This document shows, piece after piece, positions 1,232 to 61,980 of a stretch of 64,000 nt of DNA. This stretch comes from an uncultured delta proteobacterium (GTDB taxonomy: Bacteria > Myxococcota_A > Polyangia > Polyangiales > Polyangiaceae): positions 3,072,001-3,136,000 of the forward strand of contig CAWAIF010000003.1 of NCBI GenBank assembly GCA_963782055.1. The letters run 5' to 3'. The translations under genes and the position numbers were made by a program. The notes under the pieces are model-generated. The model was not told where the DNA came from. It saw only the letters and a list, made by a program, of their open reading frames with translations, and made no database searches. Positions within the stretch are counted from its first letter, which is position 1. Every line of letters begins with the position of its first letter.

Positions 1232-2134
1232 GCCCGCCCAGGTCCACGCGCGCGCGCGCGGCGTTCGCGGTGACGGCGGCCATGGCGGTCTTCGCGGCGT
1301 CGTGCGAGCCGTCCGGCTACGAGCCGCAGAGCGAGGTCGACACCCTCCGCGTCCTCGCCGTGAAGGCGGATCTGCCGTTCGCGCAGCCGGGCGAGAAGGT
1401 GCACCTGACCGCGCTGGTGGCCGACCCGCTCGGCGACGGGCGGGCCGTCTCGATGGCGTGGGGGACGTGCGAGAACCCGGGGTCCGGCGGAGATCCCGGC
1501 GTGCGAGGCGAAGGTGTCCGGGTACACCCTCGGCACGAGGTCTTTCGACGTGACCGTGCCCGCCGACGCGCTGGAGGGGCTGCCGCCGGAGGCGCCTGTC
1601 GGCGAGGTGGGCGTCGTCTTCGCGGCGTGCGCCGGCACCCTGCTGCCCGCGCCCACGCAGACGTCGCCCGTCTCCTGCGTCGACGCCCAGGGCGGCGCGG
1701 TGGGGCGCCAGGGCTTCCTGTGGGGCGGCAAGCGCATCGTGGTGGTGCCCGGGGTGCGCAACCAGAACCCCGCCATCGTCCGCGTGCGGCTAGACGGCGT
1801 GATCTGGAGCGAGTCCTACGTACCGGTCATCGACGGGTGCCCCCGCGCCACGCTGGACGACTGCCCGGACGCCCTGCAGCACGTCTTCACCGTGGAGGTG
1901 ACGCCGGAGAGCCGGGAGACCTACGGCGACCAGACGGAGGACCTGGTGGCGTGGTTCTTCGTCTCGCAGGGCGAGGTGCAGGACGACTACCTCCGGCCGG
2001 GGGACGACTTCGCCGCGGCGACGGCCTTCGCGCCCACCGCGGCGGACCCCTCGCGCCCGGTCGAGGTGTGGTTCGTCGTCCGCGACGACCGGGGGGGCGT
2101 GGACTTCACCCACCGGTCGATGCGCCTGCGATGA
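1228..2134 (+). pseudogene. Lipoprotein associated with the TonB receptor, split by a single extra base near 1485 (real or sequencing error)
   Basis: GTG at 1228 overlaps upstream TGA; lipobox-like FAASC, LRVLAVKADLP in one frame, continuing as AEIPACEAKVSGYTLG...WFVVRDDRGG in the +1 frame (ORF 1514..2134). Confidence 0.7.
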
Positions 2135-2168
2135 CGCCGTCCGGCCGCGGATTTGCTACGGTCGCGGC

Positions 2169-3659
2169 GTGACGACCCTGCGCCTCGTCGAGGTGGAGAA
2201 GCGCTTCGGATCGCTCGTCGCGGTCACCGGGGCGAGCGTGACGTTCGAGCCCGGGCGCATCCACGCGGTGGTCGGCGAGAACGGCGCGGGCAAGAGCACG
2301 CTGCTGCGCGTGGCGGCGGGCACGCTGGCGCCGGACGCGGGGCACGTGGAGATCGACGGCGTGCGGCTCGCCCCTCACACGGCCGCGCAGGCGATCGCGC
2401 GCGGGGTGGGGATGGTGGAGCAGCACTTCCTGCTCATCGACGCGCTCACCGTGCTGGACAACGCGATGCTGGGGGTGGAGCCCACGCGCGGGGTGCGCCT
2501 GGACCGCCCGGCGGCGGCGAGGAAGCTCGACGGCGTGCTCGCCGAGCTGGGCGCGACGCTCGACACGCGCGCGCGGGTGGCGGAGCTCGGCGTGGGGGAG
2601 CGGCAGCGGCTGGAGATCGCGCGCGTCCTCTTCCGCGACGCGCGCGTGGTGATCCTGGACGAGCCCACCGCGGTGCTGACGCCGCAGGAGGCGGAGGCGC
2701 TGTACGCGACGCTCCGCAAGCTGGCGGCCGCCGGGCGCGCGGTCGTCGTGGTGACGCACAAGCTGGACGAGGTCTACGATCACGCCGAGGCGGTGACCGT
2801 GCTCCGCCGCGGCCGGCTGATCGAGACGCGCCCGGTGCACCGGGGGACGCGCGCGGAGGACATGCGCGCGCTCGGGCGCGACGTGATGGGCGCGGAGGCG
2901 CCGGAGGAGGCGCCCACGGCCGCGGCCCCGGCGGGCGAGACGGTGCTGGCGGTGAACGGGCTGGCGTGCGGGCGTGCGCTGCGCGGGGTCACGCTCTCGG
3001 TCGCGCGCGGGGAGATCGTGGGCGTCGCCGGGGTGGAGGGCAACGGCCAGCGGGAGCTGGTGCACGTCCTCGCCGGCCTCGTCGAGGCGACGGCGGGGGA
3101 GGTGCGCGCGTCGGCGCCTGTCGCGGTGGTGCACGAGGACCGGCAGGAGGAGGGGCTGGTGCTGGACGCGTCCCTCTTCGACAACGCGCTACTCGGCGAT
3201 CTCGCGCGCTTCGCCCGCGGCGGGCTGCTGGCGATGGGGCGCGCCGGGGCGGAGGCGGAGCGGCGCCTGCGCGACGGCGGCGTGCGGCCGCGTGATCTGG
3301 AGCTGCCCGCGGTGGCCCTCTCCGGCGGCAACCAGCAGAAGATCGTGGTCGAGCGGGCGATGGCGCGGGCGGACGCGACACGCGGCGCGGCGGCGGCGGG
3401 CGTGCTGGTGCTCGCCCACCCGACGCGCGGCGTGGACCTCGGCGCCGCGCGAGCCATTCGCGCGCGCGTGCGGGCGGCCGCCGCGGCGGGGGCGGGGGTG
3501 CTGGTCTTCGGCGCCGACCTGGACGAGCTGCGCGTGCTCTGCCACCGCATCCTGGTCATCGCGCGCGGTCGCATCGCCGGCGAGCTGCCGCCGAGCGCTA
3601 GCAACGAGGCCATCGGCGCGCTCATGCTCGCGGGCGCGGCGACAGGGGGCGCGGCGTGA
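2169..3659 (+). CDS. Sugar/nucleoside ABC transporter ATP-binding protein (two ATPase domains)
   Basis: Walker A GENGAGKST, ILDEPT, second domain GVEGNGQ, LSGGNQQK, PTRGVD. Confidence 0.92.
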   Translation: MTTLRLVEVEKRFGSLVAVTGASVTFEPGRIHAVVGENGAGKSTLLRVAAGTLAPDAGHVEIDGVRLAPHTAAQAIARGVGMVEQHFLLIDALTVLDNAMLGVEPTRGVRLDRPAAARKLDGVLAELGATLDTRARVAELGVGERQRLEIARVLFRDARVVILDEPTAVLTPQEAEALYATLRKLAAAGRAVVVVTHKLDEVYDHAEAVTVLRRGRLIETRPVHRGTRAEDMRALGRDVMGAEAPEEAPTAAAPAGETVLAVNGLACGRALRGVTLSVARGEIVGVAGVEGNGQRELVHVLAGLVEATAGEVRASAPVAVVHEDRQEEGLVLDASLFDNALLGDLARFARGGLLAMGRAGAEAERRLRDGGVRPRDLELPAVALSGGNQQKIVVERAMARADATRGAAAAGVLVLAHPTRGVDLGAARAIRARVRAAAAAGAGVLVFGADLDELRVLCHRILVIARGRIAGELPPSASNEAIGALMLAGAATGGAA

Positions 3660-4744
3660 GCGCGCGGCGCGCCAGCGGCGCGGCGTGGGAGGCGGACCTG
3701 CTCTCCATGCTGACCGGCGTGCTCGCCGCATGGATCGCCTTCTCCCTGCTGGTGTGGGCCTACGGCGAGTCGCCGCGGGCGATGGGCGCGCTCGTCCTCT
3801 CCGGCACGTGGGGCAGCGCGTACGGCCTCGGCCAGGTGCTCTTCAAGGCGACGCCGCTGCTCTTCTCCGGGCTCGCGGTGCACTTCGCGCTGCGCGCGGG
3901 CCTCTTCAACATCGGCGCGGAGGGTCAGCTCATGGTCTCCAGCCTAGCGGTGGCGACGCTCGGGGCGCGCCTCCCGCCGGGGACGCCGGCCGCGCTCGCC
4001 TGGCCGCTGCTCTTCGTGGTGGCGGCCGCCGCGGGGGCGATCTGGGCCGCGCTGCCGGCGCTGCTGCGCGCGCGCTACGGCGCGCACGAGGTCATCTCCA
4101 CCATCATGATGAACAGCATCGGCAGCGCGCTCGTGGGCTTCCTGCTCGGGCTGGGGCTCGCGCAGAAGGACACCGTGCGCACACCGGACATCGTGCCCGG
4201 CGCGCGGCTGCCGAAGCTGGACCGCTGGGTGGGGGCGCTGCACGGGAGCGCGGCGAGCGTCGCGCTGTTCTTCGGACTGGCGCTGGTGGTGGCGGTGATG
4301 CTCCTGCTGCCGCGCACGCGCGCGGGGCGCGAGCTCGCGCTGGTGGCAGAGAACCCGGTCGCGTGCCGCGCGGAGCGCGTGCCGGTGCGCGCGCGGCTCT
4401 TCCAGGCGCTGGTCGTGTCGGGCGCGCTGGCGGGGCTGGGTAGCCTGCCGACGGTGCTGGGGTACAAGGGCTACTTCGAGCAGGGGCTCGGCGCGGGCGC
4501 AGGGTTCGCCGGGCTGGCGGTGGCGATCCTCGGCCGGGGGCGGATCGCCGGCGTCATCTTCGCCGCGCTGCTCTTCGGGACGCTGGCGCAGGGCGGGCTG
4601 GCGATCAACGCGCACGTCCCCATGGAGGTGATGGACGTCATCCAGGGCGTGGTGGTGGTGGCGGTGGCGCTGGGTGACGCGAGGGTGCGCGCGTGGCTCG
4701 TCGACCGCATGCGCGGGGCGGCGCGACCGGAGGAGGCCTCGTGA
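3656..4744 (+). CDS. Nucleoside/sugar ABC transporter permease
   Basis: Hydrophobic; GLFNIGAEGQ, HEVISTIMMN motifs; coupled to ATPase. Confidence 0.9.
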   Translation: MSARRASGAAWEADLLSMLTGVLAAWIAFSLLVWAYGESPRAMGALVLSGTWGSAYGLGQVLFKATPLLFSGLAVHFALRAGLFNIGAEGQLMVSSLAVATLGARLPPGTPAALAWPLLFVVAAAAGAIWAALPALLRARYGAHEVISTIMMNSIGSALVGFLLGLGLAQKDTVRTPDIVPGARLPKLDRWVGALHGSAASVALFFGLALVVAVMLLLPRTRAGRELALVAENPVACRAERVPVRARLFQALVVSGALAGLGSLPTVLGYKGYFEQGLGAGAGFAGLAVAILGRGRIAGVIFAALLFGTLAQGGLAINAHVPMEVMDVIQGVVVVAVALGDARVRAWLVDRMRGAARPEEAS

Positions 4745-36206: not shown

Positions 36207-36290
36207 GCGAAGGTGGCGGAATTGGCAGACGCACCAGATTCAGGTTCTGGCGAGGTCACTCTCGTGCGGGTTCAAGTCCCGCCCTTCGCA
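36207..36290 (+). tRNA. tRNA-Leu(CAG)
   Basis: Acceptor GCGAAGG/CCTTCGC, D-loop GG, anticodon arm CCAGA-TTCAGGT-TCTGG, long variable arm, GTTCAAGTC T-loop; followed by CCG so CCA is not fully encoded. Confidence 0.95.
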
Positions 36291-36301
36291 CCGACTGTCT
36301 C

Positions 36302-36324
36302 GGGGGCGGCGCGCGTCGCCCCCC
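36302..36324 (+). terminator. GC hairpin downstream of tRNA
   Basis: GGGGGCGGC...GTCGCCCCC inverted repeat; no clear U-tract. Confidence 0.45.
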
Positions 36325-36425
36325 CTCCGCACGAGTGATTCGCGCGGAGCCTCCCCCCACGCGGGCGCGACTTCGTCGCGCGACGTGCCATCATCGGGCG
36401 TCTCTTCCCTCTCGGGGCGGCACCC

Positions 36426-38219
36426 ATGGGTCTCCGGCTCAAGCTCTTCCTGCTCTCGGTGGCGCTGATCGTCGCGTCGGTCGCCGTGGCGGACGTCTAC
36501 CTGCTCGGGGCGGTCGCGGCCGGCCGCCCCCAGCGTGTGCGGAGCGAGCTGGACGCGCGCGCGTCCCTCGTCGCGGCGCACGCCGCCGCGTCGCCGGCCG
36601 CCGCGGACGATCGCCGCGCCTGGGACGCGTTCGCCCGTCAGGAGGCGCGTCTCGCGGCGGGGCGAGTCACGGTGTTCGCGCCGGACGGGGACGTGGCGGG
36701 GGACTCCGAGACGCACGCGTGGGTGGCGGGCAGCGAGCCGGAGGTGAGCGCGGCGCTCGCGGGCCGTCGCGGGTGGAGCGAGCGCGCGGACGGGCCTTCC
36801 GGCGCGACCGTGAGCTACGTCGCGGCGCCCTTCCACCGGCAGGGCGCGGTGGCCGGCGCGGTGCGCGTGGGTCTGCCGGCGGACGCGGAGGGGACGACCG
36901 CGGCGCTGCGGCGGCTGGTCCTGTTCGCGTCGGCCGCGGTGGTGCTGCTCGGCCTCGTGTTCTCCGGCGTCGCCTCCGACCGCATCTCCGCCTCGGTGCG
37001 ACGGCTGACGGCGGCGGCGCGGGAGATGCGCGCGGGGCAGCTCGACGTGCACACGGGCATGTCCGGTGGCGACGACGTCGCCGAGCTGGGGCTCGCGCTC
37101 GACCGCCTCTCCGGCAGCCTCTCGGCGACGATGAACGAGCTGCGCGCGGAGCGCGGCCTGCACGCGCGGATCCTGGAGGGCATGCAGGACGGCGTGCTCG
37201 TCGTCGACGCCACCGGTCGCCTGGAGCTGGTCAACGCGGCGCTGCGCGGGATGCTGCTGGTCGGCGCCGACGCCGTGGGCAAGCTGGTGATCGAGGTGGT
37301 CCGCCACGCGGGGTTGCAGGACCTGCTGGAGCGTGCGCGAACGACGGGGGAGGTGGCGCGGGGCGAGATCGACCTGCCCGGCATCAAGCCGCGGCGGCTG
37401 CTCGTGCACATAGCCCCGCTCTCCGGCGCGGAGGAAGGACTGCTCGCGGTCTTCGTGGACGTGACCGACCTTCGCCGCCTGGAGACGCTGCGCCGCGACT
37501 TCGTCGCCAACGTCTCGCACGAGCTGAGCACGCCGGCCATCGCGGTGCGCGACGCGGTGACGACGCTGCGGCAGGCGATGCCGGTGGACCGGCGGGCGGC
37601 GATGACGCAGGTCGAGATCATCGAGCGCCACGCCGAGCGGCTCAAGGATCTCATCGAGGACCTCCTGGACCTCTCCCGCTTCGAGTCGAAGGAGTTCCGC
37701 CTCAAGCGTGAGCCGGTCGACCTGGACGCGGTGGTGCACATCGTCGCCAGTCGCTTCCACGGCCGGGCGGCGGCGAAGGGCGTGACGCTCTCGGCCAGGG
37801 TGGAGGAGGGGTTGCCGCGACTGGAGAGCGACCAGCGCGCGGTCGAGCAGGTCCTGAGCAACCTGGTGGACAACGCGGTCAAGTACTGCCCGGCGGGTGC
37901 GTCGGTGTCGGTGACCATCGCCTCCGAGGACCAGCGCGTGCGAATGAGCGTCTCCGACACGGGGCCGGGCATCGCGCCGCAGCACCTCCCCCGCCTCTTC
38001 GAGCGGTTCTATCGCGTCGACCCTGACCGTTCGCGCGCGCTCGGCGGCACCGGCCTGGGCCTCTCCATCGTCAAGCACCTGGTGGAGGCGATGGGCGGAA
38101 CCGTCTCGGTGGAGAGCGACGTCGGCAGGGGGACCACCTTCGTCATCGTCCTCTCCGGCACCCGCCGGGTGCCTGGCCCCGGGCCGTCCGAACCCTCCGT
38201 GGGCGCGATTTCCCCCTGA
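36426..38219 (+). CDS. phoR: Sensor histidine kinase, PhoR-like (2 TM, HAMP, PAS, HisKA, HATPase)
   Basis: [41 protein letters not shown]; upstream of pst genes. Confidence 0.82.
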
Positions 38220-38242
38220 AATTCCCGGGCAAGCGCCCCTAC

Positions 38243-38275
38243 GTCACACGATCGTCACAGAGCCTTCACGTTCAG
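38243..38275 (+). promoter_or_regulatory. Pho-box-like 11-bp direct repeats upstream of pstB
   Basis: GTCAC at 38243, GTCAC at 38254, TTCAC at 38265. Confidence 0.75.
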
Positions 38276-38302
38276 CTCGCATCCGAATCCCAAAGTGCCG
38301 CC

Positions 38303-39097
38303 GTGAACCAGCCCGCGGAGCCGTCTTCCCCGAGCGTCGCGCCGGCCGTGAAGATGCGGACGAAGGACCTCACCGTCCGCTACGGCCAGAAGGTCGCTGT
38401 GAAGGACGTGTCGCTCGACGTCCGCACCAACGAGGTGCTGGCGCTCATCGGGCCGAGCGGCTGCGGCAAGAGCACCTTCCTGCGGTCCCTCAACCGGATG
38501 AACGACACCATCGCCAGCGTCCACGTCACCGGCCAGGTGGAGCTGGACGGCGAGCTCATCTATGGTCCCAACGTCGACCCGGTCCTCGTCCGGCGTCGGG
38601 TGGGGATGGTCTTCCAGCGCTCCAACCCCTTCCCCAAGTCCATCTTCGAGAACGTGGCGTACGGCCTGCGGGTGGCCGGCGTCCACGCCCGCGCCAACCT
38701 CGCCGAGCGCGTCGAGCGCGCCCTGCGCCACGCCGCCCTCTGGGACGAGGTGAAGGATCGCCTCCACGAGTCGGGCACCGGTCTCTCCGGCGGGCAGCAG
38801 CAGCGCCTGTGCATCGCCCGCGCGCTCGCGGTGGAGCCGGAGGTGCTGCTCATGGACGAGCCGGCGAGCGCGCTCGACCCCATCGCCACCGCGAAGGTGG
38901 AGGACCTGGTGTCGGAGCTGCGCGAGACGCTGACGATCGTCATCGTCACCCACAACATGCAGCAGGCGGCGCGCGTGTCGCAGCGCACCGGCTTCTTCTA
39001 CCTGGGGCGGCTGGTGGAGGTGGGAGACACCACCGACATCTTCACCCGCCCGCACGAGCGCGAGACCGAGGATTACATCACAGGACGATTCGGATGA
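38303..39097 (+). CDS. pstB: Phosphate ABC transporter ATP-binding protein
   Basis: [40 protein letters not shown]. Confidence 0.97.
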
Positions 39098-39807
39098 GGG
39101 GTGACGACGTGCCGCAAGCGCATACCAGCCGAGATTTCGAGTCGGAGCTCCGGGAGCTCCGCGCCCATTCCCTCGCCATGGGCGCCCGCTGCGAGCGCGC
39201 GCTGCAGGTCGCCCTGCAGGCGTTCTGGGAGGGATCGGCGCAGGTCGCCGCGGAGGTGGAGGAGATCGATCGACACATCGACCGCGACGAGATGGACATC
39301 GACGCGCTGGTGCTGCGGATCCTGGCGCTGCGGCAGCCCGTCGCCTACGACCTGCGCTTCCTCGCCGGCGCGCTGCGCCTCGTGACCGACCTGGAGCGCG
39401 TGGGCGACGAGGCGGTCAACATCGCCGAGCGCGCCAAGGAGGAGCACGGCACCGCCAAGGACCAGGTGAAGGAGGAGCTCAAGGCGATGGGGGAGCAGTC
39501 GCAGGAGATGCTCCGCGACGCGCTCGACGCCTTCGTCCAGGGCGAGCCCTCGCGCGCCGAGCAGGTGCTCGCGCGCGACGACGCGGTGGACGCGCTCTAC
39601 GGCAAGATCATCCGCGCCATGACCGCCTTCATGCAGCAGCACCCGCCGCAGGTGGCCGAGGCCATCCGCGTCATCCACGTCTCGAAGTACCTCGAGCGGG
39701 TGGCGGACCACGCCACCAACATCGCCGAGGAGGTCATCTTCATGGTCCGCGGCGAGGATGTCCGGCACGTCCGGACGCACCCGCCGCCGCTCGTGGGTGA
39801 CCGCTAG
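39094..39807 (+). CDS. phoU: Phosphate signalling complex protein PhoU (copy 1)
   Basis: [35 protein letters not shown]. Confidence 0.95.
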
Positions 39808-39832
39808 GCCGACACAGCACGAAAGGACTCTC

Positions 39833-40909
39833 ATGATCCGTCTTCGCATCGCCGTCGCCGCCTGCGCCGCCCTGGTGGCTCTGTCCGCCGCCTCCTGCAA
39901 GAAGTCCACGCCGACATCCGGGGGCGGCGACAAGTCGGGCTCGTCCACGGTCGCGCTCAACGGCGCCGGCTCCACCTTCGTCTACCCGGTGATGTCGCGG
40001 TGGTCGAGCGAGTACCAGAAGGTCGCGCCCAACGTGCAGGTCAACTACCAGTCCATCGGGTCCGGGGGCGGCATCCGGCAGCTCATCGCGCACACCGTGC
40101 AGTTCGGCTGCACCGACGGCCCGATGACCGACAGCCAGCTGAAGGAGGCCAAGTCGCCGGTCATCCACGTGCCGCTGGTGATGGGCGCGGTGGTGCCCAC
40201 GTACAACCTGCCCGCGCTCGCGCACGCCATCAAGTTCACGCCGGAGGTGCTCGCCGGGATCTACCTCGGCGAGATCAAGACCTGGAACGACCCCAAGCTC
40301 ACCGCCGACAACGCCGACCTGAAGCTCCCGGCGACGTCCATCGTCGTGGTGCATCGCTCCGACGGCAGCGGCACCACCTACGTGTGGACCGACTACCTGT
40401 CCAAGGTCTCGCCCGACTGGAAGAGCAAGGTGGGCTTCGCCACGTCGGTCAAGTGGCCGACCGGCCTCGGGGGCCGCGGCAACGAGGGCGTCTCGGGCAC
40501 GGTGCGCCAGACGCCCGGGGCCATCGGCTACGTGGAGCTCACCTACGCGATCCAGAACAAGATGCCCTTCGGCCAGGTGAAGAACGCCGCGGGCCAGTTC
40601 GCCACCGCGAGCGTCGACGCCGTCACCGCGGCCGCCGCGGGCGCCGTCGCCACCCTGCCGGAGGACCTGCGCTACTCCATCACCAACGCCCCGGGCGACA
40701 AGGCGTGGCCCATCAGCGGCACCACCTGGGCCGTGCTCTACAAGGACATGCCCGCCGGGCCGGAGCGCACCGCGGTGGTGTCGTATCTCCGCTGGGCCAT
40801 CCACGACGGGCAGAAGTTCTGCGGGCCTCTGGACTACGCGCAGCTCCCCCCGGAGCTGGTGAAGCGCGCGGAGGCGAAGCTCGATCAGGTGGAGCCGGCG
40901 AAGAAGTAG
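39833..40909 (+). CDS. pstS: Phosphate ABC transporter substrate-binding lipoprotein
   Basis: GAGSTF, YQSIGSGGG, RSDGSGTT, IGYVE; AAAGGA RBS. Confidence 0.96.
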   Translation: MIRLRIAVAACAALVALSAASCKKSTPTSGGGDKSGSSTVALNGAGSTFVYPVMSRWSSEYQKVAPNVQVNYQSIGSGGGIRQLIAHTVQFGCTDGPMTDSQLKEAKSPVIHVPLVMGAVVPTYNLPALAHAIKFTPEVLAGIYLGEIKTWNDPKLTADNADLKLPATSIVVVHRSDGSGTTYVWTDYLSKVSPDWKSKVGFATSVKWPTGLGGRGNEGVSGTVRQTPGAIGYVELTYAIQNKMPFGQVKNAAGQFATASVDAVTAAAAGAVATLPEDLRYSITNAPGDKAWPISGTTWAVLYKDMPAGPERTAVVSYLRWAIHDGQKFCGPLDYAQLPPELVKRAEAKLDQVEPAKK

Positions 40910-40913
40910 GACG

Positions 40914-41924
40914 ATGGCGATGAACCTGCAGGCCGTGGGGCGCGTGAGCGGCCCCTCGCGGCGATCGCGCTCGCTGCGTCGCTGGGGCCCCCACTGGCTC
41001 CACGGCTGGACGAGCGCGGACGCCATCTTCCGCAAGGCCTGTGCGGCCGTCGCCGCGTCCATCGTCGTGCTTCTCACCCTGCTCATCTACGAGCTGGTGC
41101 GCGGGTCGAAGCTGTCGCTCGTCAAGTTCGGCCTGCACTTCCTGGTCGACAAGGTCTGGGACCCGGTCGCCGAGCAGTTCGGCGCGGCGACCTTCGCCTA
41201 CGGCACCGTGGTGACCTCGACGATCGCGCTGCTGCTCGCGGTGCCGCTCGGCGTGGGGATCGCCATCTTCCTCGTGGAGATGGCGCCGCGGCGGCTGGGC
41301 GCGGCCGTCGGGTTCCTCGTCGAGCTCCTGGCGGCGATCCCGTCCATCGTCTACGGCCTCTGGGGCCTCTTCGTGCTGGCGCCCTTCGTGCGCGACGTCG
41401 TCGCCCCCTTCCTGCACGCGACCCTGGGCTTCTTGCCGATCTTCGCCGGGCAGTCGCACGGCGTCGGCATGCTGACCGGCGGCATCATCCTGGCGGTGAT
41501 GATCCTGCCGTTCATCGCCGCGGTCTCGCGCGACGTCCTCTCCGCCGTGCCGCAGACGCAGCGGGAGGCGTCGCTCGCCCTGGGCGCCACCAAGTGGGAG
41601 ACCATCTGGCACGTGGTGTTGCCGTACGGGCGCGCGGGCATCGCCGGCGCCGTGATCCTCGCCCTGGGTCGTGCGCTCGGCGAGACGATGGCCGTCACGA
41701 TGGTCATCGGCAACAACCCGCAGATCGTCGCCTCCCTCTTCGAGCCCGGCTACACCATGTCGTCGGTCATCGCCAACGAGTACGCCGAGGCCTCCGGCCC
41801 CATGTACCTCTCCGCGCTGACGGAGGTGGGCCTCTTCCTCTTCCTCATCACCTTCGCGGTCAACGGCGTCGCGCAGCTGCTCATCTGGCGGATGACGCGC
41901 GGCAGGGAAGGGGGCGCCGCGTGA
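40914..41924 (+). CDS. pstC: Phosphate ABC transporter permease
   Basis: ELLAAIPSIVYGLWG, ALGRALGETMAV. Confidence 0.95.
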   Translation: MAMNLQAVGRVSGPSRRSRSLRRWGPHWLHGWTSADAIFRKACAAVAASIVVLLTLLIYELVRGSKLSLVKFGLHFLVDKVWDPVAEQFGAATFAYGTVVTSTIALLLAVPLGVGIAIFLVEMAPRRLGAAVGFLVELLAAIPSIVYGLWGLFVLAPFVRDVVAPFLHATLGFLPIFAGQSHGVGMLTGGIILAVMILPFIAAVSRDVLSAVPQTQREASLALGATKWETIWHVVLPYGRAGIAGAVILALGRALGETMAVTMVIGNNPQIVASLFEPGYTMSSVIANEYAEASGPMYLSALTEVGLFLFLITFAVNGVAQLLIWRMTRGREGGAA

Positions 41925-42802
41925 CCACCGTCGCCACGCCGCCGCCGCGCCGCACGCTCGCCATCTCGCCGCGGCGCAAGCTGACCAACCACGTGATGCT
42001 CGGCCTCTGCATCCTCGCCACGATCGTGGCGCTGGTCGTGCTCGTGCTCATCTTCGGCTACGTGCTCATGCAGGGCGCGCGCTTCGTCAACCTGGCCTTC
42101 TTCACGCAGCTCCCCACGCCGGTGGGCGTTCCGGGCGGCGGGTTCCTCAACTCGCTGGTGGGCACCGGCATCATGGTGGGCGTCGCCTCTGCCATGAGCA
42201 TCCCGGTGGGCCTGTTCGCGGGCATCTACCTGGCGGAGTTCGGCAAGGGGTGGTTCGCGCGGGCGGTGCGCTTCGTCAACGACAGCCTCAACGCGACGCC
42301 CTCCATCGTCGCCGGGCTCTTCGCCTACACCCTCATCGTCCTGGAGACCCACCACTTCTCCGGCTTCGCCGGGAGCGTGGCGCTCGCCGTGCTGATGGTG
42401 CCCACCATCACCCGCACCACCGAGGAGATGTTCCGCCTGGTGCCGCGCACCCTGCGTGAGGCGGCGCTGGCGCTCGGCGTCCCGGAGTGGCGGATGACGA
42501 TGCAGATCGTCCTGCGCGCCGCGGCGCCCGGGGTCATCACAGGCGTCATGCTGGCGGTCGCGCGGGTGTCCGGCGAGACGGCGGCCCTGCTCTTCACCGC
42601 CTTCAACAACCGCTTCCTCTCCACCTCGCTCGACCAGCCGATGAGCAGCGTCCCGGTGCAGGTCTACACCTACGCCGTGGCCCCCTACGACGACTGGCAC
42701 CACCAGGCATGGGCGGGGGCCCTGGTGCTGGTCTCGCTCGTCGCGCTCTTCAGCGCGGCCGTGCGCCTGGCGACGCGCAGCCGCCACCGCTCGAGCGGCT
42801 GA
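41921..42802 (+). CDS. pstA: Phosphate ABC transporter permease
   Basis: PSIVAGLF, REAALALG, ARVSGETAALLFT. Confidence 0.95.
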   Translation: MTTVATPPPRRTLAISPRRKLTNHVMLGLCILATIVALVVLVLIFGYVLMQGARFVNLAFFTQLPTPVGVPGGGFLNSLVGTGIMVGVASAMSIPVGLFAGIYLAEFGKGWFARAVRFVNDSLNATPSIVAGLFAYTLIVLETHHFSGFAGSVALAVLMVPTITRTTEEMFRLVPRTLREAALALGVPEWRMTMQIVLRAAAPGVITGVMLAVARVSGETAALLFTAFNNRFLSTSLDQPMSSVPVQVYTYAVAPYDDWHHQAWAGALVLVSLVALFSAAVRLATRSRHRSSG

Positions 42803-42886
42803 CCCCCGCCCCTCCCCAGGCGCCAGGGAGCCTGGGCGTTCTCACGTCGCGCTCTGCGTCCGACGGTGGCATCCTACGGGGAGAGT

Positions 42887-43585
42887 ATGCCCGGCACCCA
42901 CACCAGCCGCGACTTCGAGGCGGAGCTCCGCGAGCTCCGGGCCCACACCCTCGCCATGGGCGCGCGCTGCGAGCGCAGCCTGCAGCTCGCGCTCGAGGCC
43001 TACTGGCAAGGCTCGACCGAGCTCGCCGAGGAGGTGGTGGAGCTGGACCGACACATCGACCGCGACGAGATGGACATCGACGCGCTGGTGCTCCGCATCC
43101 TCGCCCTGCGGCAGCCGGTGGCCTACGACCTGCGCTTCCTGGCCACCGCGCTCAAGCTGGTGACCGACCTGGAGCGCATCGGGGACGAGGCGGTCAACAT
43201 CGCCGAGCGCGCGCGGGAGGGGAAGGGCGTCGCCCGCAACCAGGTGCGTGACGCGCTGCGGTCCATGTGCGAGCAGGCCCAGCAGATGCTCCGCGACGCC
43301 CTGGACGCCTTCGTCCAGGCGGAGGTCACCCGCGCCGAGCAGGTGCTGGTCCGCGACGACATCGTGGACGCCGCCTACGGGCAGATCCTCCGCACCATGA
43401 TGCAGTTCATGGAGGAGAACCCGAACGAGGTGCCTCCGGCCGTGCGCGTCACCAAGGTCGCCAAGTGCATCGAGCGGGTCGCCGACCACGCCACCAACAT
43501 CGCCGAGGAGGTGATCTTCATGGTGCGCGGGGAGGACGTGCGCCACCACCGGACGCACCCCCCGCCCCCCGCCCGGGAGGGGTGA
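42887..43585 (+). CDS. phoU: Phosphate signalling complex protein PhoU (copy 2)
   Basis: Same motifs as copy 1; visibly high DNA and protein similarity. Confidence 0.95.
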   Translation: MPGTHTSRDFEAELRELRAHTLAMGARCERSLQLALEAYWQGSTELAEEVVELDRHIDRDEMDIDALVLRILALRQPVAYDLRFLATALKLVTDLERIGDEAVNIAERAREGKGVARNQVRDALRSMCEQAQQMLRDALDAFVQAEVTRAEQVLVRDDIVDAAYGQILRTMMQFMEENPNEVPPAVRVTKVAKCIERVADHATNIAEEVIFMVRGEDVRHHRTHPPPPAREG

Positions 43586-43640: not shown

Positions 43641-43687
43641 TTCACAGTATCGTCCCGAAGTTCACAGAGCCGTCACGATGTCGTCCG
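43641..43687 (+). promoter_or_regulatory. Pho-box-like repeats upstream of porin gene
   Basis: TTCACAGAGCCGTCACG (43661) nearly identical to GTCACAGAGCCTTCACG before pstB; further TTCAC/GTCCC pair at 43641/43652. Confidence 0.7.
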
Positions 43688-43716
43688 AGGGTGCAGGGCC
43701 GGAAGGGGCCACACCC

Positions 43717-45390
43717 ATGAACCGACGATTCGCGACCCGATGCTTCGCCTTGATGCTCACCGCCGGGGGCGCCGCGAGCGCGCAGACGCCGCCGCCCGCC
43801 GCCACGCCGCCCGCCGCCACCGCGCCCGCCGCCACGGCTCCGGCTCCTGACGCCGGTGCGGCGCCGGGTGTGGGGACCGCGCCGCCGCCGGTCGCCGCCG
43901 CGCCGCCGCCGCCGCTGCCCGCACCACCGCCGCCGCCTCCACCTCCGGCCCCCGCCTCCTCCGGCGGAGGCGTGGCCACACCCCCGGCGAGCGCCGGGAC
44001 GGGCGCCGGCTTCATGTCGCTGCGGCTGATGCGCGAGAAGGGCATCATCACGCAGGCCGAGTACGACAGCGCCATCCACGACCTCTCCGAGAGCGTCGGC
44101 CGCGCGGCCCCCGACGGCCTGTCCTTCGTCCTCGGCAAGTGGTCGACCACGATGTACGGCTTCGTGGAGGCGGACGGCATCTGGGACTCCACCCGCAGCT
44201 TCAACGACATCGCCGGCAGCGGTCAGGTGGCGCGCTCGGGCACCATCCGCGGCGACAACTCCCGCTTCATGATGAGCGTGCGCAACTCGCGCATCGGCTT
44301 CCGCCTGCGCGCGCCGGAGACGCACGGCATCCGCGCGAGCGCCAAGCTGGAGATGGACTTCCTCGGCACCGAGCTCCCCATCGGGGCGGGGCAGCCCTAC
44401 TTCGGCAGCGAGGGCGCCTACTTCACCAACCCGACCTTCCGCATCCGCCACTTCAACCTGAAGCTGGAGACGCCCATCGTCGACGTGCTCATCGGCCAGT
44501 CGTGGCAGCTCCTCGGCTGGCAGGGCATGTACCAGCCCAACACCGTCGAGTACCAGGGCGTGCCGGGTGAGCTCTACGCCCGCACGCCGCAGCTGCTGGT
44601 CCAGAAGACCATCAAGACGCACGCGGTGACGGTGGACGTCGCGGCGGCGCTCGCCCGGCCGGTGCAGCGCGACTCCTCGGTGCCCGACGGGCAAGCGGGC
44701 GTGCGCCTGGCGATCAACCAGTGGACGGGCTGGACCACCAACGGATCCACCGGCACCAACCTGCAGCCCGCCTCCATCGCGCTCACCGGCAACGTGCGGA
44801 AGATCAGCGTGGACGAGTGGTCGGCCGCGCCGAAGAACACCGTCGACAAGTGGGCGTCGGCCATGGCGGTCGACCTCTTCGTGCCGGTGCTGCCCGGGAC
44901 CAAGACCAAGAAGGCCAACGTCCTCTCGCTCACCGGCGAGTTCGCCTACGGCTACGGCGACTCCGACTTCTACACCGGCCTCTCCGGTGGGGTGACCTTC
45001 CCGGCGCCTCCCAACCCGACGGGCGCGAGCCCCGCGCCCACCTACCCGCAGAACATCGACAACGGCATCGCGACCTACGACCTGGCGGGGGGCCTGCACA
45101 CCATCCAGTGGACGTCCTTCTTCGTGGGCGCGCAGTACTACCTGCCCATCCTGGATGGGCGCGTGTGGGTCTCCGGCAACTACTCGCACATCGGCTCGAA
45201 CAACACGCAGTTCTACGGCGCGGCGAGCAAGACGCGGTCGTCGGAGGACTGGTTCGACGCCAACGTCTTCGCCGATCTCACGCGCGCGGTGCGCTTTGGC
45301 GTGGAGTACGCGCACATCGACGACCACTACAACGACGGCGCCACCGCCACCAACCACCGGGTGCAGCTCTCGGCCTTCTACATCTTCTGA
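43717..45390 (+). CDS. Outer-membrane beta-barrel porin (DcaP-like), Pro-rich N-terminus
   Basis: Signal peptide, YGFVEAD, SRIG, RIRH, IGQSW motifs, terminal Phe (LSAFYIF). Confidence 0.7.
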   Translation: MNRRFATRCFALMLTAGGAASAQTPPPAATPPAATAPAATAPAPDAGAAPGVGTAPPPVAAAPPPPLPAPPPPPPPPAPASSGGGVATPPASAGTGAGFMSLRLMREKGIITQAEYDSAIHDLSESVGRAAPDGLSFVLGKWSTTMYGFVEADGIWDSTRSFNDIAGSGQVARSGTIRGDNSRFMMSVRNSRIGFRLRAPETHGIRASAKLEMDFLGTELPIGAGQPYFGSEGAYFTNPTFRIRHFNLKLETPIVDVLIGQSWQLLGWQGMYQPNTVEYQGVPGELYARTPQLLVQKTIKTHAVTVDVAAALARPVQRDSSVPDGQAGVRLAINQWTGWTTNGSTGTNLQPASIALTGNVRKISVDEWSAAPKNTVDKWASAMAVDLFVPVLPGTKTKKANVLSLTGEFAYGYGDSDFYTGLSGGVTFPAPPNPTGASPAPTYPQNIDNGIATYDLAGGLHTIQWTSFFVGAQYYLPILDGRVWVSGNYSHIGSNNTQFYGAASKTRSSEDWFDANVFADLTRAVRFGVEYAHIDDHYNDGATATNHRVQLSAFYIF

Positions 45391-57170: not shown

Positions 57171-58628
57171 TCAGCGATCCAGCTCGACCTGGTCGATCAC
57201 GTCGTCGCCCGCCACGCCGCCGCCGGAGGCCTTGAGCCCGTAGGCCTTGAGCGTGAGCTTGTGCGCCTCCAGCGTGACGAGTGAGTAGACGCCGACGTAG
57301 GGCGTGCCGCCGCCGAAGCCCATGTTGAAGGCGCGGTACGGCGCCGGGGCGGTGCCGGGGGCGTAGCCGTTCGCCCCCGCGCCCGCGCACACGACGTAGG
57401 TGGTGCCGTCGGTGGTGGAGGTCTGCACGACCGGAGCGTCGGCCGGGCCGGTGATCGGCTTGGTGCGCTCGTAGTTGTGATCGTGGCCGTTGAGCACCAG
57501 GTCCACGTGGTGCTTGTCCCAGATGGGCACGAGCGCGTCGCGCGTGCGGATCACGTCGGCGTCGCTGCCGTGGTTGGCGGTGGAGAACTCCCCGCGGTGG
57601 TGCACCACGATCAAGAAGGGGCGCGACGCGCGGTCCTGCTCCGCCTTGCCGAGGTCGGCGTCCAGGAAGGCGAGCTGCGCCTTGGCCGCGTCGCCCGTGG
57701 GGTCCTCCGCGATGGCCTGGTCGTCGAGCAGCACGATGTGGGCGGAGCCCACGTCCACCGAGGCGAAGGACTCGGCGTAGGGCCCGTCCCCCGGGAGCGC
57801 GAAGTTGCCGTAGAACTGCGAGGAGCTGTTCTCGTGGTTGCCGGGGACCGGCAGGATCATCTGCTGGCCGAGGGTGAGGAACTTGCTCGCGTCGTTGGGA
57901 TCCTTCCACGCGGCGTCCAGCCACTGGCCGTACAGCGACTCCTGCGCGCCCCACAGCACGAAGTCGCCGGAGAAGAGCTGCAGGCTGACGCCGGCGTCCA
58001 GCATGCGCTCCTGCACGAGCTGGTAGACGTTCTTGTCGTCGCGGGAGTCCCCGGAGACGCCGAGGGTGATGGCCCCCGAGGAAGGCACCGTCGTGAAGGA
58101 CTGCGTGGCGCTCCACACCTCGGCCCCCGCCGCGCCGCCGCCGACCTGGTAGTAGTAGGTCGTGCCGGGCTGCAGGCCGCAGACGTGGACCTCGTGCATG
58201 TAGGTGTCCGGCTCGCCGGTGCCGAAGCCCACGGTGGGCGCGGGGGTCGTCCACGAGTAGCCGGCGTGGACGTCGGCGAGGTCGGAGGGGGAGCTGCCCA
58301 GCTTCACCCGCGCGGCGGAGCCCTGCGCGGGCGTCTCCCAGGTGAACGCGGCGGTGGTCGTCGGGTCGGCGTCACCGGAGGCGCCGCCCAGGCCGAGACG
58401 CACCCGCGTGGGGGTGGCGCCGGCGGTGTCGGTGATGGCCTGGCCGTCATCCAGCGTCGCGCCCACGAAGCCACGCACCTCGGGGAGCTGCACGGTGTAC
58501 GAGCAGCCGGCCGGCGTGTAGCTGAAGGTCGTCGCGGCGTCGGCCCCGGCGTCGGGAGCCGGCGTGGTGCCGTCAGGGGAGCTGCAGGCGAGAAGGAAGG
58601 CGGGGGCGGCGAGGAGCAGGCGATGCAT
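57171..58628 (-). CDS. Metallophosphoesterase lipoprotein, purple-acid-phosphatase-like with FN3-type N-domain
   Basis: LLAC lipobox; HEVHVCGLQPGTTYYYQVG; GDSR, GDFV, GNHE, HH, GHDHNYER. Confidence 0.88.
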   Translation of the reverse strand: MHRLLLAAPAFLLACSSPDGTTPAPDAGADAATTFSYTPAGCSYTVQLPEVRGFVGATLDDGQAITDTAGATPTRVRLGLGGASGDADPTTTAAFTWETPAQGSAARVKLGSSPSDLADVHAGYSWTTPAPTVGFGTGEPDTYMHEVHVCGLQPGTTYYYQVGGGAAGAEVWSATQSFTTVPSSGAITLGVSGDSRDDKNVYQLVQERMLDAGVSLQLFSGDFVLWGAQESLYGQWLDAAWKDPNDASKFLTLGQQMILPVPGNHENSSSQFYGNFALPGDGPYAESFASVDVGSAHIVLLDDQAIAEDPTGDAAKAQLAFLDADLGKAEQDRASRPFLIVVHHRGEFSTANHGSDADVIRTRDALVPIWDKHHVDLVLNGHDHNYERTKPITGPADAPVVQTSTTDGTTYVVCAGAGANGYAPGTAPAPYRAFNMGFGGGTPYVGVYSLVTLEAHKLTLKAYGLKASGGGVAGDDVIDQVELDR

Positions 58629-58632
58629 CCGG

Positions 58633-58665
58633 CCGATTGTGACACGAAAGTGTCATCCTGGTAAC
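58633..58665 (-). promoter_or_regulatory. Pho-box-like 11-bp repeats
   Basis: Minus strand GTTAC-N6-GACAC-N6-GTCAC, 10 nt before the ATG. Confidence 0.65.
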
Positions 58666-58733
58666 GGACGAAAGGCGAGCCGGTGAACAGGCCGCGGGTC
58701 CCTCGCGACCCCGGGCTCCTCTCACCTCGGGGG

Positions 58734-60374
58734 TCAGAAGACGAAGAAGGCGGAGACCTGGCCGCGGTGGTTGACGGAGTGGGCGCCGTCGACGAACCGG
58801 TCGTTGAAGTAGGCGTACTCCAGCCCCACGCGCACGCCGGGCAACGGGTCGAAGAAGGCATTCACGTCGAAGAAGTCCTCGAACTTCCGGACCGCCGCCG
58901 CCGAGACGTAGTCGGAGTTGTTGGGGTTGGGCAGCACGCTGACCGGCCGGGTGTACAGCTCGATGTTGGGCGACTCGGTGTGGGAGTAGTTGCCGGAGAT
59001 CCAGACGCGCCCCTTCAGGCCGGGCAGGTAGTACTGGAGCCCCACCATGAAGGTGTTCCACTGGATGGGGTGCAGGTCCTGGTTGACGTTGTCGAAGACC
59101 ACCAGGCCGTTGTCGATGTTCTGAGGGTAGGCGGGCGGAGGGTTGAGTCCCGTCTTGTTGGGCAGCGTGGGGAACGTCAGCCCGCCCGTCAGCCCGGTGT
59201 ACAGGTCGGCGATCCCGCTGCCCATGACCACCTCGCCGGTGAGCGACAGCGAGTTGCCCATCTTCTTCTTCGTCGCCGGGATGACGGGGAGGAAGACGTC
59301 GCCCGCGACCGAGGCCGTGGTGAGGGTGACGCCGTCGGTCGGCACCTGCGCGAAGGACGGCAGCACGAAGGTGCGCATGTCGCCGGTCACCGCGATGGCG
59401 GCGGGGCGGATGCTGGTGCCGGTGGAGCCGCTGGTGGCGAGCCCCGTCCACTCGTCGATGGCGAAGCGCAGGCCGGCGACGCCGTCGGGGATCATGGAGT
59501 CGCGCTCCGGCGGACGCAGCGCCGCGGCGGCGAGCTCCAGCGTCGTGGGGCCGAGCTTGAAGGCGTGGGAGAGCCGGATCTGCGGTGTGCGCGCGTAGAG
59601 CTGCCCCGGCAGCCCCTGGATCTGCACCGAGTTGGGGTGGAAGTCCGACTGCCAGCCGAACAGGTGCCAGTACTGGCCGATGAGGACGTCCACGATCGGC
59701 GTCTCGATCTTCACGTTGGCGTGGCGGACGCGGAGCGTGGGGCTGGTGAAGACGGCGCCCTCGCTGCGGCCGGAGCCGGAGCCGTAGCTCGGGCCCGGGT
59801 CGTAGCCCATGAAGTCCATCTCCAGCGTGGCGCTGGCGCGGACGTGGCTCACCTCCGGCGCGCGCAGCCGGAGGCCGAAGCGGCTGTTGCTGACGCCGAA
59901 CTGCACGCGGCCGTTCTCCGCCGTGTACGTGGACTGCGTCGCGGGCAGCGGCGCTGGATGCCCGGAGGGGCGCACCAGCACCGCGTTGCCGGCGAGCGCG
60001 CCGAAGCTCTGCGTGGAGTCCAGGATGCTGTCGGCCTCCACGAAGCCGTAGAGGCTGAGCGACCACCTGCCCATCACCACGCTGTTGGCGTCGGCGGCGC
60101 GCGCGCCGGTGGAGTCGCCCACGTCGTGCAGCGCGGAGGCGTACTCGGCGTCGGTGAGGATGCCCTTGTCGTGCATCACCCGCAACGTCGACAGCCCCAC
60201 GGGCGAGCGCCTCGTCGCCGGCGGGGGCGCGGCCGGGGCGGGCGGCGGCGGCGTGGCGGCGGGGGGCGGCGTGGCCGTCCCGCCGTCGGGCGCCGGGTCC
60301 TGCGCGAGCGCGGCGCTCGTGAGCGTGAGACAGACCGAGGCCGCGGTGAACGCGGCGGCGAGCGATGCGCGCAT
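58734..60374 (-). CDS. Outer-membrane porin, paralogue of 43717..45390
   Basis: Shared YGFVEAD, LEMDF, ETPIVDVLIGQ, YPQNIDNG; terminal VSAFFVF. Confidence 0.72.
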   Translation of the reverse strand: MRASLAAAFTAASVCLTLTSAALAQDPAPDGGTATPPPAATPPPPAPAAPPPATRRSPVGLSTLRVMHDKGILTDAEYASALHDVGDSTGARAADANSVVMGRWSLSLYGFVEADSILDSTQSFGALAGNAVLVRPSGHPAPLPATQSTYTAENGRVQFGVSNSRFGLRLRAPEVSHVRASATLEMDFMGYDPGPSYGSGSGRSEGAVFTSPTLRVRHANVKIETPIVDVLIGQYWHLFGWQSDFHPNSVQIQGLPGQLYARTPQIRLSHAFKLGPTTLELAAAALRPPERDSMIPDGVAGLRFAIDEWTGLATSGSTGTSIRPAAIAVTGDMRTFVLPSFAQVPTDGVTLTTASVAGDVFLPVIPATKKKMGNSLSLTGEVVMGSGIADLYTGLTGGLTFPTLPNKTGLNPPPAYPQNIDNGLVVFDNVNQDLHPIQWNTFMVGLQYYLPGLKGRVWISGNYSHTESPNIELYTRPVSVLPNPNNSDYVSAAAVRKFEDFFDVNAFFDPLPGVRVGLEYAYFNDRFVDGAHSVNHRGQVSAFFVF

Positions 60375-60387
60375 GGGTTCCGGCGGT

Positions 60388-61875
60388 TCAGTGGGTGAGC
60401 TGTACCGTGTCGAGTACGTCGTCGTCGGCGACCTTGGTGCCCGAAGCCTTCAGCCCGTAGGCGTTGAGCGTGAGCTGGTTGCCCGAGAGCGTCAGCAGGG
60501 CGTAGGTGCCGATGTAGCTGGTGCCGTTGCCGAAGGCGGCGTTCTTCTCGCGGAAGGTGGAGGCGGTGGTGCCGACGGCGTACGGGTCGGCGCCGGCGCC
60601 GGCGCAGATGACGTAGACGGTGCCCTTGCCGACGACCGGATCGCCGCTCGGCGGGCTGCCCGCCTGGAGGGGCTTGGAGCGCTCGTACTCGTGGTCGTGG
60701 CCGTTGATGACCACGTCCACCTTGTACTTGTCGAACACCGGCGCGAGCTGCGAGCGCGCGTAGAGCACGTCGCCGTCGGTCGAGTGGTTGGAGGTCGAGT
60801 ACAGGCCGCGGTGGCTGATGACGACGATGAAGGGCACCTTGGCGCGGTTGGCGTCGGCGCGGGAGAGATCGCCGTCGAGCCAGCTCAGGATGGCGGCGCC
60901 GCCGGTGCTGCCTTCCTGCGAGACGGGCTGATCGTCGACCAGGACGAAGTGCGTGTTGCCCACGTCGAAGGACGCGTACTGCTCGGCGTAGTCCGGGTCG
61001 TCGCCCGGGATGGCGAAGTTCGCGTAGAACTGCGACGCCTCGTTCTCGTGGTTGCCGGCGATGGGCACCATCATCTGCTGGCCGAGCGTGATGAACTTGC
61101 CGCTCGCGTCGGGGTCCTGCCAGATGGCGTCGAGCCACTGGTCGTAGAGGTTGGACAGCGAGCCGATGTCGACGACGTCGCCGCCGACGAGCTGCATGGC
61201 GGCGCCGGCGTCGAGCATCCGGCGCTGCACGAGCTGCCAGGTGGAGACCTTGTCGCGCGCGTCGCCCAGCACGCCTACGGTGATGCTGCCGCTGTCGGGC
61301 ACCGTGGTGAAGGACTGCGTCGCGCTCCACACCTCCGAGCCCGTGGGGCCGCCGCCGACCTGGTAGTAGTAGGTCGTGGCGGGCTGGAGCCCGCAGACGT
61401 GGACCTCGTGCATGTACTCCGGCACGCCGGAGCTGAAGCCGATGGTCGGCGGAGGCGTGGTCCACGAGTAGCCCGCGTGGACGTCGGAGAGGGTGCCCGG
61501 GTCGGTGCCCATCTTCACCTTCGCCGCGTGGTCGGGCGCGGCCGTCTCCCAGGTGAAGGCGGCGGTGGTCGTGGGGTCGGCGTACCCCGCCTGCCCGCTG
61601 GTGGTGCCGCCACCCAGCCCGACGCGCACGCGCATCGGCGTGGCCTTGCTCGCGTCGTCGAAGGCGGAGGTGTCGTCGGCGGCCATGTCGGTGTAGCCGC
61701 GCGTCGCCGGGGGCGTCACCGTGTAGGCGCACCCGGCTGGCGAGTAGGTGAAGGAGGCGGTGCCCCCGTCGGCGCCGGTGCCGGCGTCGTCGCCGGTGTC
61801 ATGATTGGATTTTCCGGACCCGCAGCTCGTGACCGCGACGAGCAAGCCCAGCGAAGCCCACGTCAAAGCGCGCAT
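60388..61875 (-). CDS. Metallophosphoesterase lipoprotein, paralogue of 57171..58628
   Basis: VTSC lipobox; GDAR, GDVV, GNHE, SH, GHDHEYER. Confidence 0.88.
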   Translation of the reverse strand: MRALTWASLGLLVAVTSCGSGKSNHDTGDDAGTGADGGTASFTYSPAGCAYTVTPPATRGYTDMAADDTSAFDDASKATPMRVRVGLGGGTTSGQAGYADPTTTAAFTWETAAPDHAAKVKMGTDPGTLSDVHAGYSWTTPPPTIGFSSGVPEYMHEVHVCGLQPATTYYYQVGGGPTGSEVWSATQSFTTVPDSGSITVGVLGDARDKVSTWQLVQRRMLDAGAAMQLVGGDVVDIGSLSNLYDQWLDAIWQDPDASGKFITLGQQMMVPIAGNHENEASQFYANFAIPGDDPDYAEQYASFDVGNTHFVLVDDQPVSQEGSTGGAAILSWLDGDLSRADANRAKVPFIVVISHRGLYSTSNHSTDGDVLYARSQLAPVFDKYKVDVVINGHDHEYERSKPLQAGSPPSGDPVVGKGTVYVICAGAGADPYAVGTTASTFREKNAAFGNGTSYIGTYALLTLSGNQLTLNAYGLKASGTKVADDDVLDTVQLTH

Positions 61876-61913: not shown

Positions 61914-61946
61914 AAAGGGATGACGAGCGTGTGGCGGTCGTGTGTC
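61914..61946 (-). promoter_or_regulatory. Pho-box-like 11-bp repeats
   Basis: Minus strand GACACACGACC GCCACACGCTC GTCATCCCTTT, similar to GTCACACGATC before pstB. Confidence 0.55.
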
Positions 61947-61980
61947 GCCACCCGGATGTCACGCGCGCGACGTCGCGTCG

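Follow-up and report, generated by a model that had tools for sequence, protein, structure and literature searches.

In a window of 64,000 nucleotides from an uncultured member of the Polyangiaceae (positions 3,072,001 to 3,136,000 of contig CAWAIF010000003.1, assembly GCA_963782055.1; window coordinates below count from the first letter of this stretch), a gene for a predicted metallophosphoesterase lipoprotein, here named PAP2, is followed directly by a gene for a predicted outer-membrane porin, here named porin A, and our results revealed that this PAP2-porin A pair, not the triple that it forms with a second enzyme gene named PAP1, is the unit conserved among its relatives. PAP2 (60388-61875, minus strand, 495 aa), porin A (58734-60374, minus strand, 546 aa) and PAP1 (57171-58628, minus strand, 485 aa) are all intact open reading frames, with 13 nt between the first two and 105 nt between the last two, and the locus is flanked by a GNAT gene on one side and a convergent Ser/Thr kinase gene on the other, in a host genome of 7.58 Mb that is 97% complete. 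The initial annotation had seen here two paralogous metallophosphoesterase lipoproteins flanking a co-oriented porin, itself a paralogue of a porin linked to the pst cluster and 13 nt from PAP2. This layout is borne out, as PAP1 and PAP2 are 56-58% identical and each carries a lipobox Cys, porin A is 49% identical to the pst-linked porin B, which is its sole paralogue in the genome, and the spacing agrees with the coordinates. As for the role of the pair, we hold it to be slightly better than an even chance that it acts as a phosphate-starvation entry-and-hydrolysis unit for organophosphates, with cleavage in the periplasm and import through Pst or Pit.

The linkage of the two genes was surveyed across Myxococcota from both sides. 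Starting from the porin, in 80 loci of species-representative genomes, many of them on short contigs, a PAP2-type gene lies directly upstream in 14, which answers the call of the initial annotation for a co-occurrence survey of the porin family with PAP-like genes; pst or phoU genes occur in 17 of the 80, and 3 loci have both. For example in L050 the genes run in one direction in the order PAP2-porin-pstB-pstS-pstC-pstA-phoU. In a quick tree the enzyme-linked porins group together in a single clade (17 rows, support 84); 15 of these rows have the enzyme, one ends at a contig edge and one is without it. Starting from the enzyme, a metagenome survey by enzyme alignment alone, which avoids selection through the porin, gave 78 loci, and its tree was built from 54 long and close rows with 21 distant loci and fragments left out. 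In the PAP2 clade of this tree (30 rows, support 96), the porin is downstream in 20 rows, one of these being a weak match cut by the contig edge, and upstream in one, while 9 rows meet a contig edge and none lacks the porin; the porin thus adjoins PAP2 in 21 of 21 informative rows, a few rows being duplicates. The PAP1 clade behaves differently, with no porin in 8 of its 13 rows, a porin upstream in 2 and a contig edge in 3, and in a sister clade of 9 rows one has a porin and 8 have none. The gap between enzyme and porin ranges from -4 to 159 nt (n=24 pairs), and the pairwise distances of 25 enzyme-porin pairs correlate with r = 0.85, a value obtained with no control gene and not counted as co-evolution.

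Accordingly, of the three-gene cassette proposed in the initial annotation the linkage of enzyme and porin stands and the triple does not, because a second enzyme follows downstream in only 2 of the 14 enzyme-linked porin loci, PAP1 orthologues mostly stand before DUF47-Pit with no porin, and PAP1 has a Pho-box-like repeat of its own. In fact PAP1 orthologues are typically found in the order gatA-GNAT-PAP1-DUF47-Pit, and in L254 the order is PAP2-porin-PAP1-DUF47-Pit; a DUF47-Pit partner of PAP1 was not found in the genome of the window. Judged from these sequences, the triple in the window is best read as a PAP2-porin pair standing in front of a separately promoted PAP1. In L135 (6491-7979, genome G001) the PAP1 orthologue, located before DUF47 and about 12 kb from a PAP2-porin pair, is split by a frameshift, which is possibly an assembly error.

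As for the predicted promoters, a matrix of three units with an 11-nt period was built solely from 7 pstB promoters of other genomes, the Pho-box repeat unit being 11 nt according to the accessible text of PMC4415409, and the 200 nt upstream of 6,222 genes (codon-score gene calls) were scanned. The box before pstB (38242-38274) ranks first of the 6,222, and the triple repeat before PAP2 (61915-61947, minus strand), the predicted promoter of PAP2 and porin A, ranks third; the repeat before porin B (43660-43692, plus strand) ranks seventh, and a weaker triple repeat before PAP1 (58634-58666, minus strand), predicted to be its own promoter, ranks 45th, so that the Pho-box-like repeats which the initial annotation had placed before both phosphatases were recovered, the PAP1 box being the weaker. 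With periods of 9, 10, 12 and 13 the rank falls to 1,635-3,303 for PAP1 and to 47-3,696 for PAP2, and with two units the PAP1 box drops to 820. The second rank in the genome belongs to a PF04185 phosphoesterase lipoprotein (G000:C3:562050-563378), and SurE (10), a PF01663 phosphodiesterase (28), a second PF04185 gene (30) and a PhoB-like regulator (33) are also ranked high; 10 of the top 45 genes were checked, and several others appear unrelated.

In other genomes, a box score in the top 2%, for which the base rate is about 3%, was found for 9 of 14 PAP2 promoters, 3 of 7 PAP1-like promoters and 8 of 20 promoters of OprO/P genes standing before the enzyme. For the porins themselves, 14 of the 80 loci being without a usable start, the counts are 28 of 41 for orphan porins, 10 of 12 for pst-linked porins and 3 of 13 for porins behind PAP2. 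The porin family is therefore predicted to be Pho-regulated in general, even where it has no enzyme neighbour, and the few own boxes of porins behind PAP2 are as expected for co-transcription with PAP2, from whose promoter porin A is likewise predicted to be read. Repeats that resemble the PAP1 box in sequence and placement are present in L051 and L061. Matches with a 12-nt period before enzyme-linked porins (10 of 13) lie inside the PAP2 coding sequence and were judged to be codon artefacts. A scan for sigma-70 promoters and terminators between the three genes found none, such a scan being uninformative at 72% GC.

Both enzymes match Pur_ac_phosph_N (PF16656) and Metallophos (PF00149) above the Pfam cut-off, and the predicted structure of PAP2 (pLDDT 90.9) is closest to kidney bean purple acid phosphatase (PAP; Z 37.2, rmsd 2.7, 370 aligned residues, 21% identity), with PhoD (Z 23.8), GpdQ (Z 22.4) and sphingomyelinase-like proteins (Z 17-19) as lower matches. 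The motifs are GDAR / GDVVD / GNHE / SHR / GHDH in PAP2 and GDSR / GDFVL / GNHE / HHR / GHDH in PAP1. The calcineurin-like metallophosphoesterase motifs are thus present, and D205, D233, N275, H276, H355, H393 and H395 are invariant in all 37 aligned homologues; neither the six metal-binding residues nor the catalytic His varies among them, and a Cys pair is invariant as well. The Tyr ligand of the GDxxY motif is found in none of the 37, and the first motif is DxR rather than DxG in all of them. In the accessible part of PMC2553084 this Tyr defines the purple class of acid phosphatases, and phosphodiesterases typically lack it according to what is available of PMC7642983; for this reason we call PAP1 and PAP2 predicted non-purple PAP-fold phosphoesterases, and the name purple acid phosphatase was rejected, with the Tyr absent from 37 of 37 and DxR in place of DxG. 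Their substrates are probably phosphodiesters or mixed mono- and diesters rather than phytate, which is disfavoured because that Tyr is missing; a phytase identity was also rejected, with nothing in its favour except the common fold. Moreover, GDxxD occurs in 14 of 15 enzymes of the PAP2 clade and GDxxL/I/F in the PAP1 clade, a difference in motif that may point to distinct substrates.

The Cys of the lipobox, C18 in PAP2, comes after a hydrophobic leader and has an aligned Cys in 35 of 37 homologues, and behind it the homologues have a disordered tether of 14-62 aa; the lipoprotein call was made by sequence pattern, with no dedicated predictor. Among lipoprotein sorting signals of Myxococcus xanthus, a Lys at +2 marks the inner membrane and an Ala at +7 the matrix (PMC3222651, in the text accessible to us), and both are absent from PAP1 and PAP2. 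Neither enzyme and not porin A either received an NCBIfam name above the cut-off, and a plasmid search with a distant enzyme homologue gave 2 partial matches.

Porin A is predicted to be a 16-stranded outer-membrane barrel (pLDDT 89.9) with a signal peptide, an N-terminal helical SHOCT-like extension, a C-terminal Phe and two long loops, L1 and L7. The model has the barrel geometry of DcaP and its periplasmic N-terminal helical extension (6eus: Z 33.5, rmsd 2.3, 336 aligned residues, 17% identity; Foldseek E 3.8e-18), the nearest named Atlas clusters are DcaP (score 0.96), and general porins and PhoE score far lower (Z about 25). By sequence no such name could be given: the DcaP profile PF19577 has no match to porin A at E <= 0.1, Pfam and NCBIfam give it no name but a weak SHOCT match, and a PDB sequence search returned nothing significant. 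The OprO/P profile PF07396 matches neither porin of the window and was found nowhere else in the 97%-complete genome. Porin A as an OprP orthologue was rejected, there being no PF07396 match and OprO and OprP ranking only 16th and 18th in the Foldseek search, far below DcaP. Of 8,000 candidates that were scored, 710 are relatives of the porin at E <= 1e-10. By a stricter search the family occurs in at least 14 of 401 genomes of the phylum; among 61 relatives it is present in 17, of which 3 are weak partial matches.

At nine positions Arg is conserved to at least 90% in each of the three porin groups (enzyme-linked, pst-linked, other), and this set is suggestive of anion selectivity in porin A. 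The loops on the other hand differ: in all 15 enzyme-linked porins L1 has 39-53 aa and L7 28-49 aa, with conserved Pro and Tyr in the insertions, while in 14 pst-linked porins L1 has 28 aa (one truncated) and L7 15-20 aa. From the strand topology of the model and the periplasmic N-terminus of DcaP, both loops are probably extracellular, and the long ones could make room for larger substrates in a vestibule, or provide a surface for docking. The insertions have a single origin and are also seen in a few porins with no adjoining enzyme (L052, L055), and therefore they are not decisive. Within the family, porin A has Ala126 and Ser162 in place of a nearly invariant Asp and Arg, possibly an ion pair whose two members were lost together, with a change of selectivity. 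The family members P0127 and P0128 (728-770 aa) have an N-terminal FecR domain fused to a simple porin, and this anti-sigma-type periplasmic domain could serve signalling.

The pairing of enzyme and porin is not limited to the family of porin A. Enzyme homologues are present in 84 of 401 genomes of the phylum (103 matches), and 60 enzyme loci, holding 64 of the matches, were picked, the main criteria being score and remoteness from the ends of contigs; 8 further matches were already covered by other loci of the analysis, and 31 lay outside the sample. Among the 60, a Porin_O_P gene at or above the Pfam cut-off stands directly upstream and co-oriented in 15, from 11 family codes, in addition to 2 divergent Porin_O_P genes, one found by local profile only and one DcaP-type pair. 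OprO/P genes also precede the enzyme in 3 of 20 loci of closer relatives (19.6-21.3 bits), one of them then followed by PhoD, and in 7 distant metagenome loci, an eighth having OprO/P downstream. In the tree of the enzymes, those with an OprO/P neighbour are spread across many branches, whereas those with a DcaP-type neighbour make up one clade of 16 rows, which were chosen mostly through the porin. Since there are few such porin genes per genome, we infer that the adjacency of enzyme and OprO/P is far above chance, although relatives are not independent. Thus the pairing of this enzyme with a porin recurs in the phylum with two unrelated channel families. In L087, L110 and L112 a Porin_O_P gene adjoins a DcaP-fold family member, so that the two porin types coexist at one locus.

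To explain these observations, the reading that we somewhat favour is an entry-and-hydrolysis unit in which low phosphate would let PhoB switch on PAP2 and porin A, the anion-preferring pore would let small anionic organophosphates into the periplasm, PAP2 tethered to the periplasmic face of the outer membrane would free the phosphate, and Pst or Pit would import it. A stable complex of enzyme and porin would not be required, and PAP1 would be a separately promoted paralogue in the same Pho island, usually tied to DUF47-Pit. The adjacency and its conservation, the folds, the active-site motifs, the lipobox and the boxes are read from the sequences, and on them we infer co-transcription, induction by PhoB, anion selectivity, the periplasmic orientation of the enzyme and its substrates. 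Several points weigh against this. Within the sister clade 8 of 9 rows have no porin, and 41 of the 60 enzyme loci have no adjoining porin, hence the enzyme family does not need the porin; the PAP2-porin A pairs may go back to one origin, so that they are kin and not independent cases; the M. xanthus sorting rules may not apply in Polyangiaceae; the insertions specific to enzyme-linked porins are extracellular, beyond the reach of a periplasmic enzyme; and porin A has Ser162 at a position that is Arg in 14 of the 15 enzyme-linked porins and in all the others.

Another explanation follows the idea of the initial annotation that the lipoprotein hydrolases dock on the channel: a surface-exposed PAP2 would be docked on the long extracellular L1 and L7 of a porin A trimer, cleaving organophosphates at the pore mouth, with the phosphate channelled inward. 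That all 15 enzyme-linked porins exceed the 14 pst-linked ones in both loops, that the insertions keep Pro and Tyr, that a disordered tether of 14-62 aa extends from the lipid anchor, and that no informative row of the PAP2 clade is without a porin would all suit such a complex. Nevertheless we consider it unlikely, as the insertions have a single origin and also occur where no enzyme adjoins, and no surface-export signal of a known type was found for the enzyme; moreover, in other lineages the partner of the enzyme family is an OprO/P barrel, unrelated to porin A and with the gene order reversed, and one conserved interface is disfavoured because both porin family and gene order are swapped across the phylum. 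In its widest form, equally doubtful, this would be a porin-based utilisome, where a surface-exposed non-purple PAP-fold lipoprotein docked on the loops of a DcaP-fold trimer would couple hydrolysis with uptake without TonB energy, and other lineages of myxobacteria would have joined the same enzyme family to OprO/P porins.

A more modest explanation is that nothing but regulation is shared, with porin A as a second porin for inorganic phosphate, the enzymes independent of it, and the clustering due to the Pho promoter in a phosphate island. The boxes occur throughout the porin family with or without an enzyme, the island neighbours (pst, DUF47-Pit, PhoD and lipid genes) vary in order, and many enzyme homologues are solitary, all consistent with this; it is rather improbable in our view, for two unrelated porin families are both immediate neighbours of the enzyme, and a second porin copy with distinct loops is kept even though porin B is already at the pst cluster. 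The lipid genes of these islands allow still another explanation, namely that the enzymes are Tyr-less phosphodiesterases recycling head groups of phospholipids or sphingolipids, from the own membrane or from prey, together with glycosyltransferase-21 (GT21), LPG-synthase-like and small metallophosphoesterase genes, the porin carrying the products. In fact a GT21, LPG_synthase_TM or ~245-aa Metallophos gene adjoins the enzyme or the porin in L051, L053, L058, L129, L140, L147, L253, L254 and L259, and PMC7642983, in its available text, regards the lack of the Tyr as typical of phosphodiesterases; still, plant PAPs (Z 37) match the fold much better than GpdQ (Z 22) or sphingomyelinase-like proteins (Z 17-19) do, no such lipid gene flanks the locus, and the genome of the window gave no match to GT21 or LPG-synthase queries, which makes this explanation quite improbable.

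Compared with known systems, the logic of entry plus hydrolysis is already known, by analogy, from the phosphate utilisation systems PUS I-IV of Flavobacterium. These low-phosphate clusters have an outer-membrane transporter with predicted periplasmic phosphomono- or diesterases, PUSI including a PF00149 enzyme (Lidbury et al., PMC8115612, in its accessible part), and the co-location of an outer-membrane channel with phosphoesterase genes is also what is seen at PAP2-porin A. The PUS, however, consist of a TonB-dependent SusC and a SusD binding lipoprotein, while here the channel is a predicted passive 16-stranded porin, no SusD-like gene is at the locus and the enzyme itself is the lipoprotein; because SusC and SusD are absent, PAP2-porin A is not a PUS. 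The channel resembles DcaP of Acinetobacter baumannii (6eus; bioRxiv 10.1101/306035 and PMC12338516, as far as accessible) in its 16 strands, the periplasmic N-terminal helical extension and several conserved Arg. DcaP is trimeric and strongly anion-selective (bioRxiv 10.1101/306035, available text), and it serves di- and tricarboxylates, whereas genes of the porin A family are located at pst clusters and downstream of Pho-box-like repeats. The enzymes share with high-molecular-weight PAPs, of plants and of bacteria such as Rv2577 (PMC7642983, in the part available), an FN3-like N-domain with a calcineurin-like domain and the ligands Asp, Asp, Asn, His, His and His, and differ from them in the missing Tyr, DxR for DxG, the lipid anchor and the invariant Cys pair.

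Phosphate-starvation porins are known as OprP and OprO in Pseudomonas and PhoE in Escherichia coli, and genes of the OprO/P family replace the porin beside the enzyme family in other Myxococcota. In Geobacter, ExtH is a lipoprotein that depends on ExtI. The likeness of extH-extI to the present pair is that a conserved cluster places an enzyme-like (rhodanese) gene right next to a porin gene that is OprO/P-like; the difference lies in the selenite/tellurite and cytochrome context and in ExtI being unchanged under phosphate limitation (PMC5877670, accessible text). In the literature searched, most subscription papers being outside our reach, no report was found that joins OprP, OprO or PhoE with a PAP-like lipoprotein in a unit of two genes, nor any description of this porin family or of a porin-PAP pair, in agreement with the initial annotation, which had not recognised a described system. 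An unnamed porin family, with no Pfam name and labelled hypothetical, is thus a likely phosphate-starvation channel of many Polyangia and would be a third structural route beside OprP and PhoE; together with the phosphoesterases it makes a candidate phylum-wide module in soil and freshwater myxobacteria, offering targets for organic-phosphorus recovery, and the predicted phosphoesterases stand out as a PAP-fold family that lacks the Tyr and in which Arg207 is invariant. If docking were true, the principle of an enzyme on a transporter would extend from TonB systems to simple porins.

Besides the pair itself, the window holds the phosphate cluster of the same genome about 13 kb from porin A, where phoR, pstB, phoU, pstS, pstC, pstA and a second phoU (36426-43585, plus strand, names which we assign from sequence motifs rather than from a library scan) are followed by porin B (43717-45390, plus strand), the porin A paralogue with short L1 and L7, as the final gene. 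A tRNA-Leu precedes this phoR and pst cluster, which has two phoU copies and pstB first (36207-43585 in all), and phoB does not adjoin phoR, a PhoB-like regulator with its own box being located at G000:C3:5551610. The GT21, LPG-synthase-like and ~245-aa metallophosphoesterase genes recur in phosphate islands (L051, L053, L058, L067, L069, L075, L090, L129, L140, L147, L253, L254 and L259), a set which presumably resembles the PlcP-type set for phosphorus-free lipid remodelling. Finally, at G000:C3:2130626-2136415 there is a run of genes that begins with an unnamed secreted protein, whose box is moderate (rank 68 of 6,222), and that includes a barrel-like gene and genes that we take to be ExbB-, ExbD- and TonB-like, and a homologue of this secreted protein lies directly behind the porin in L103 (9574-10833).

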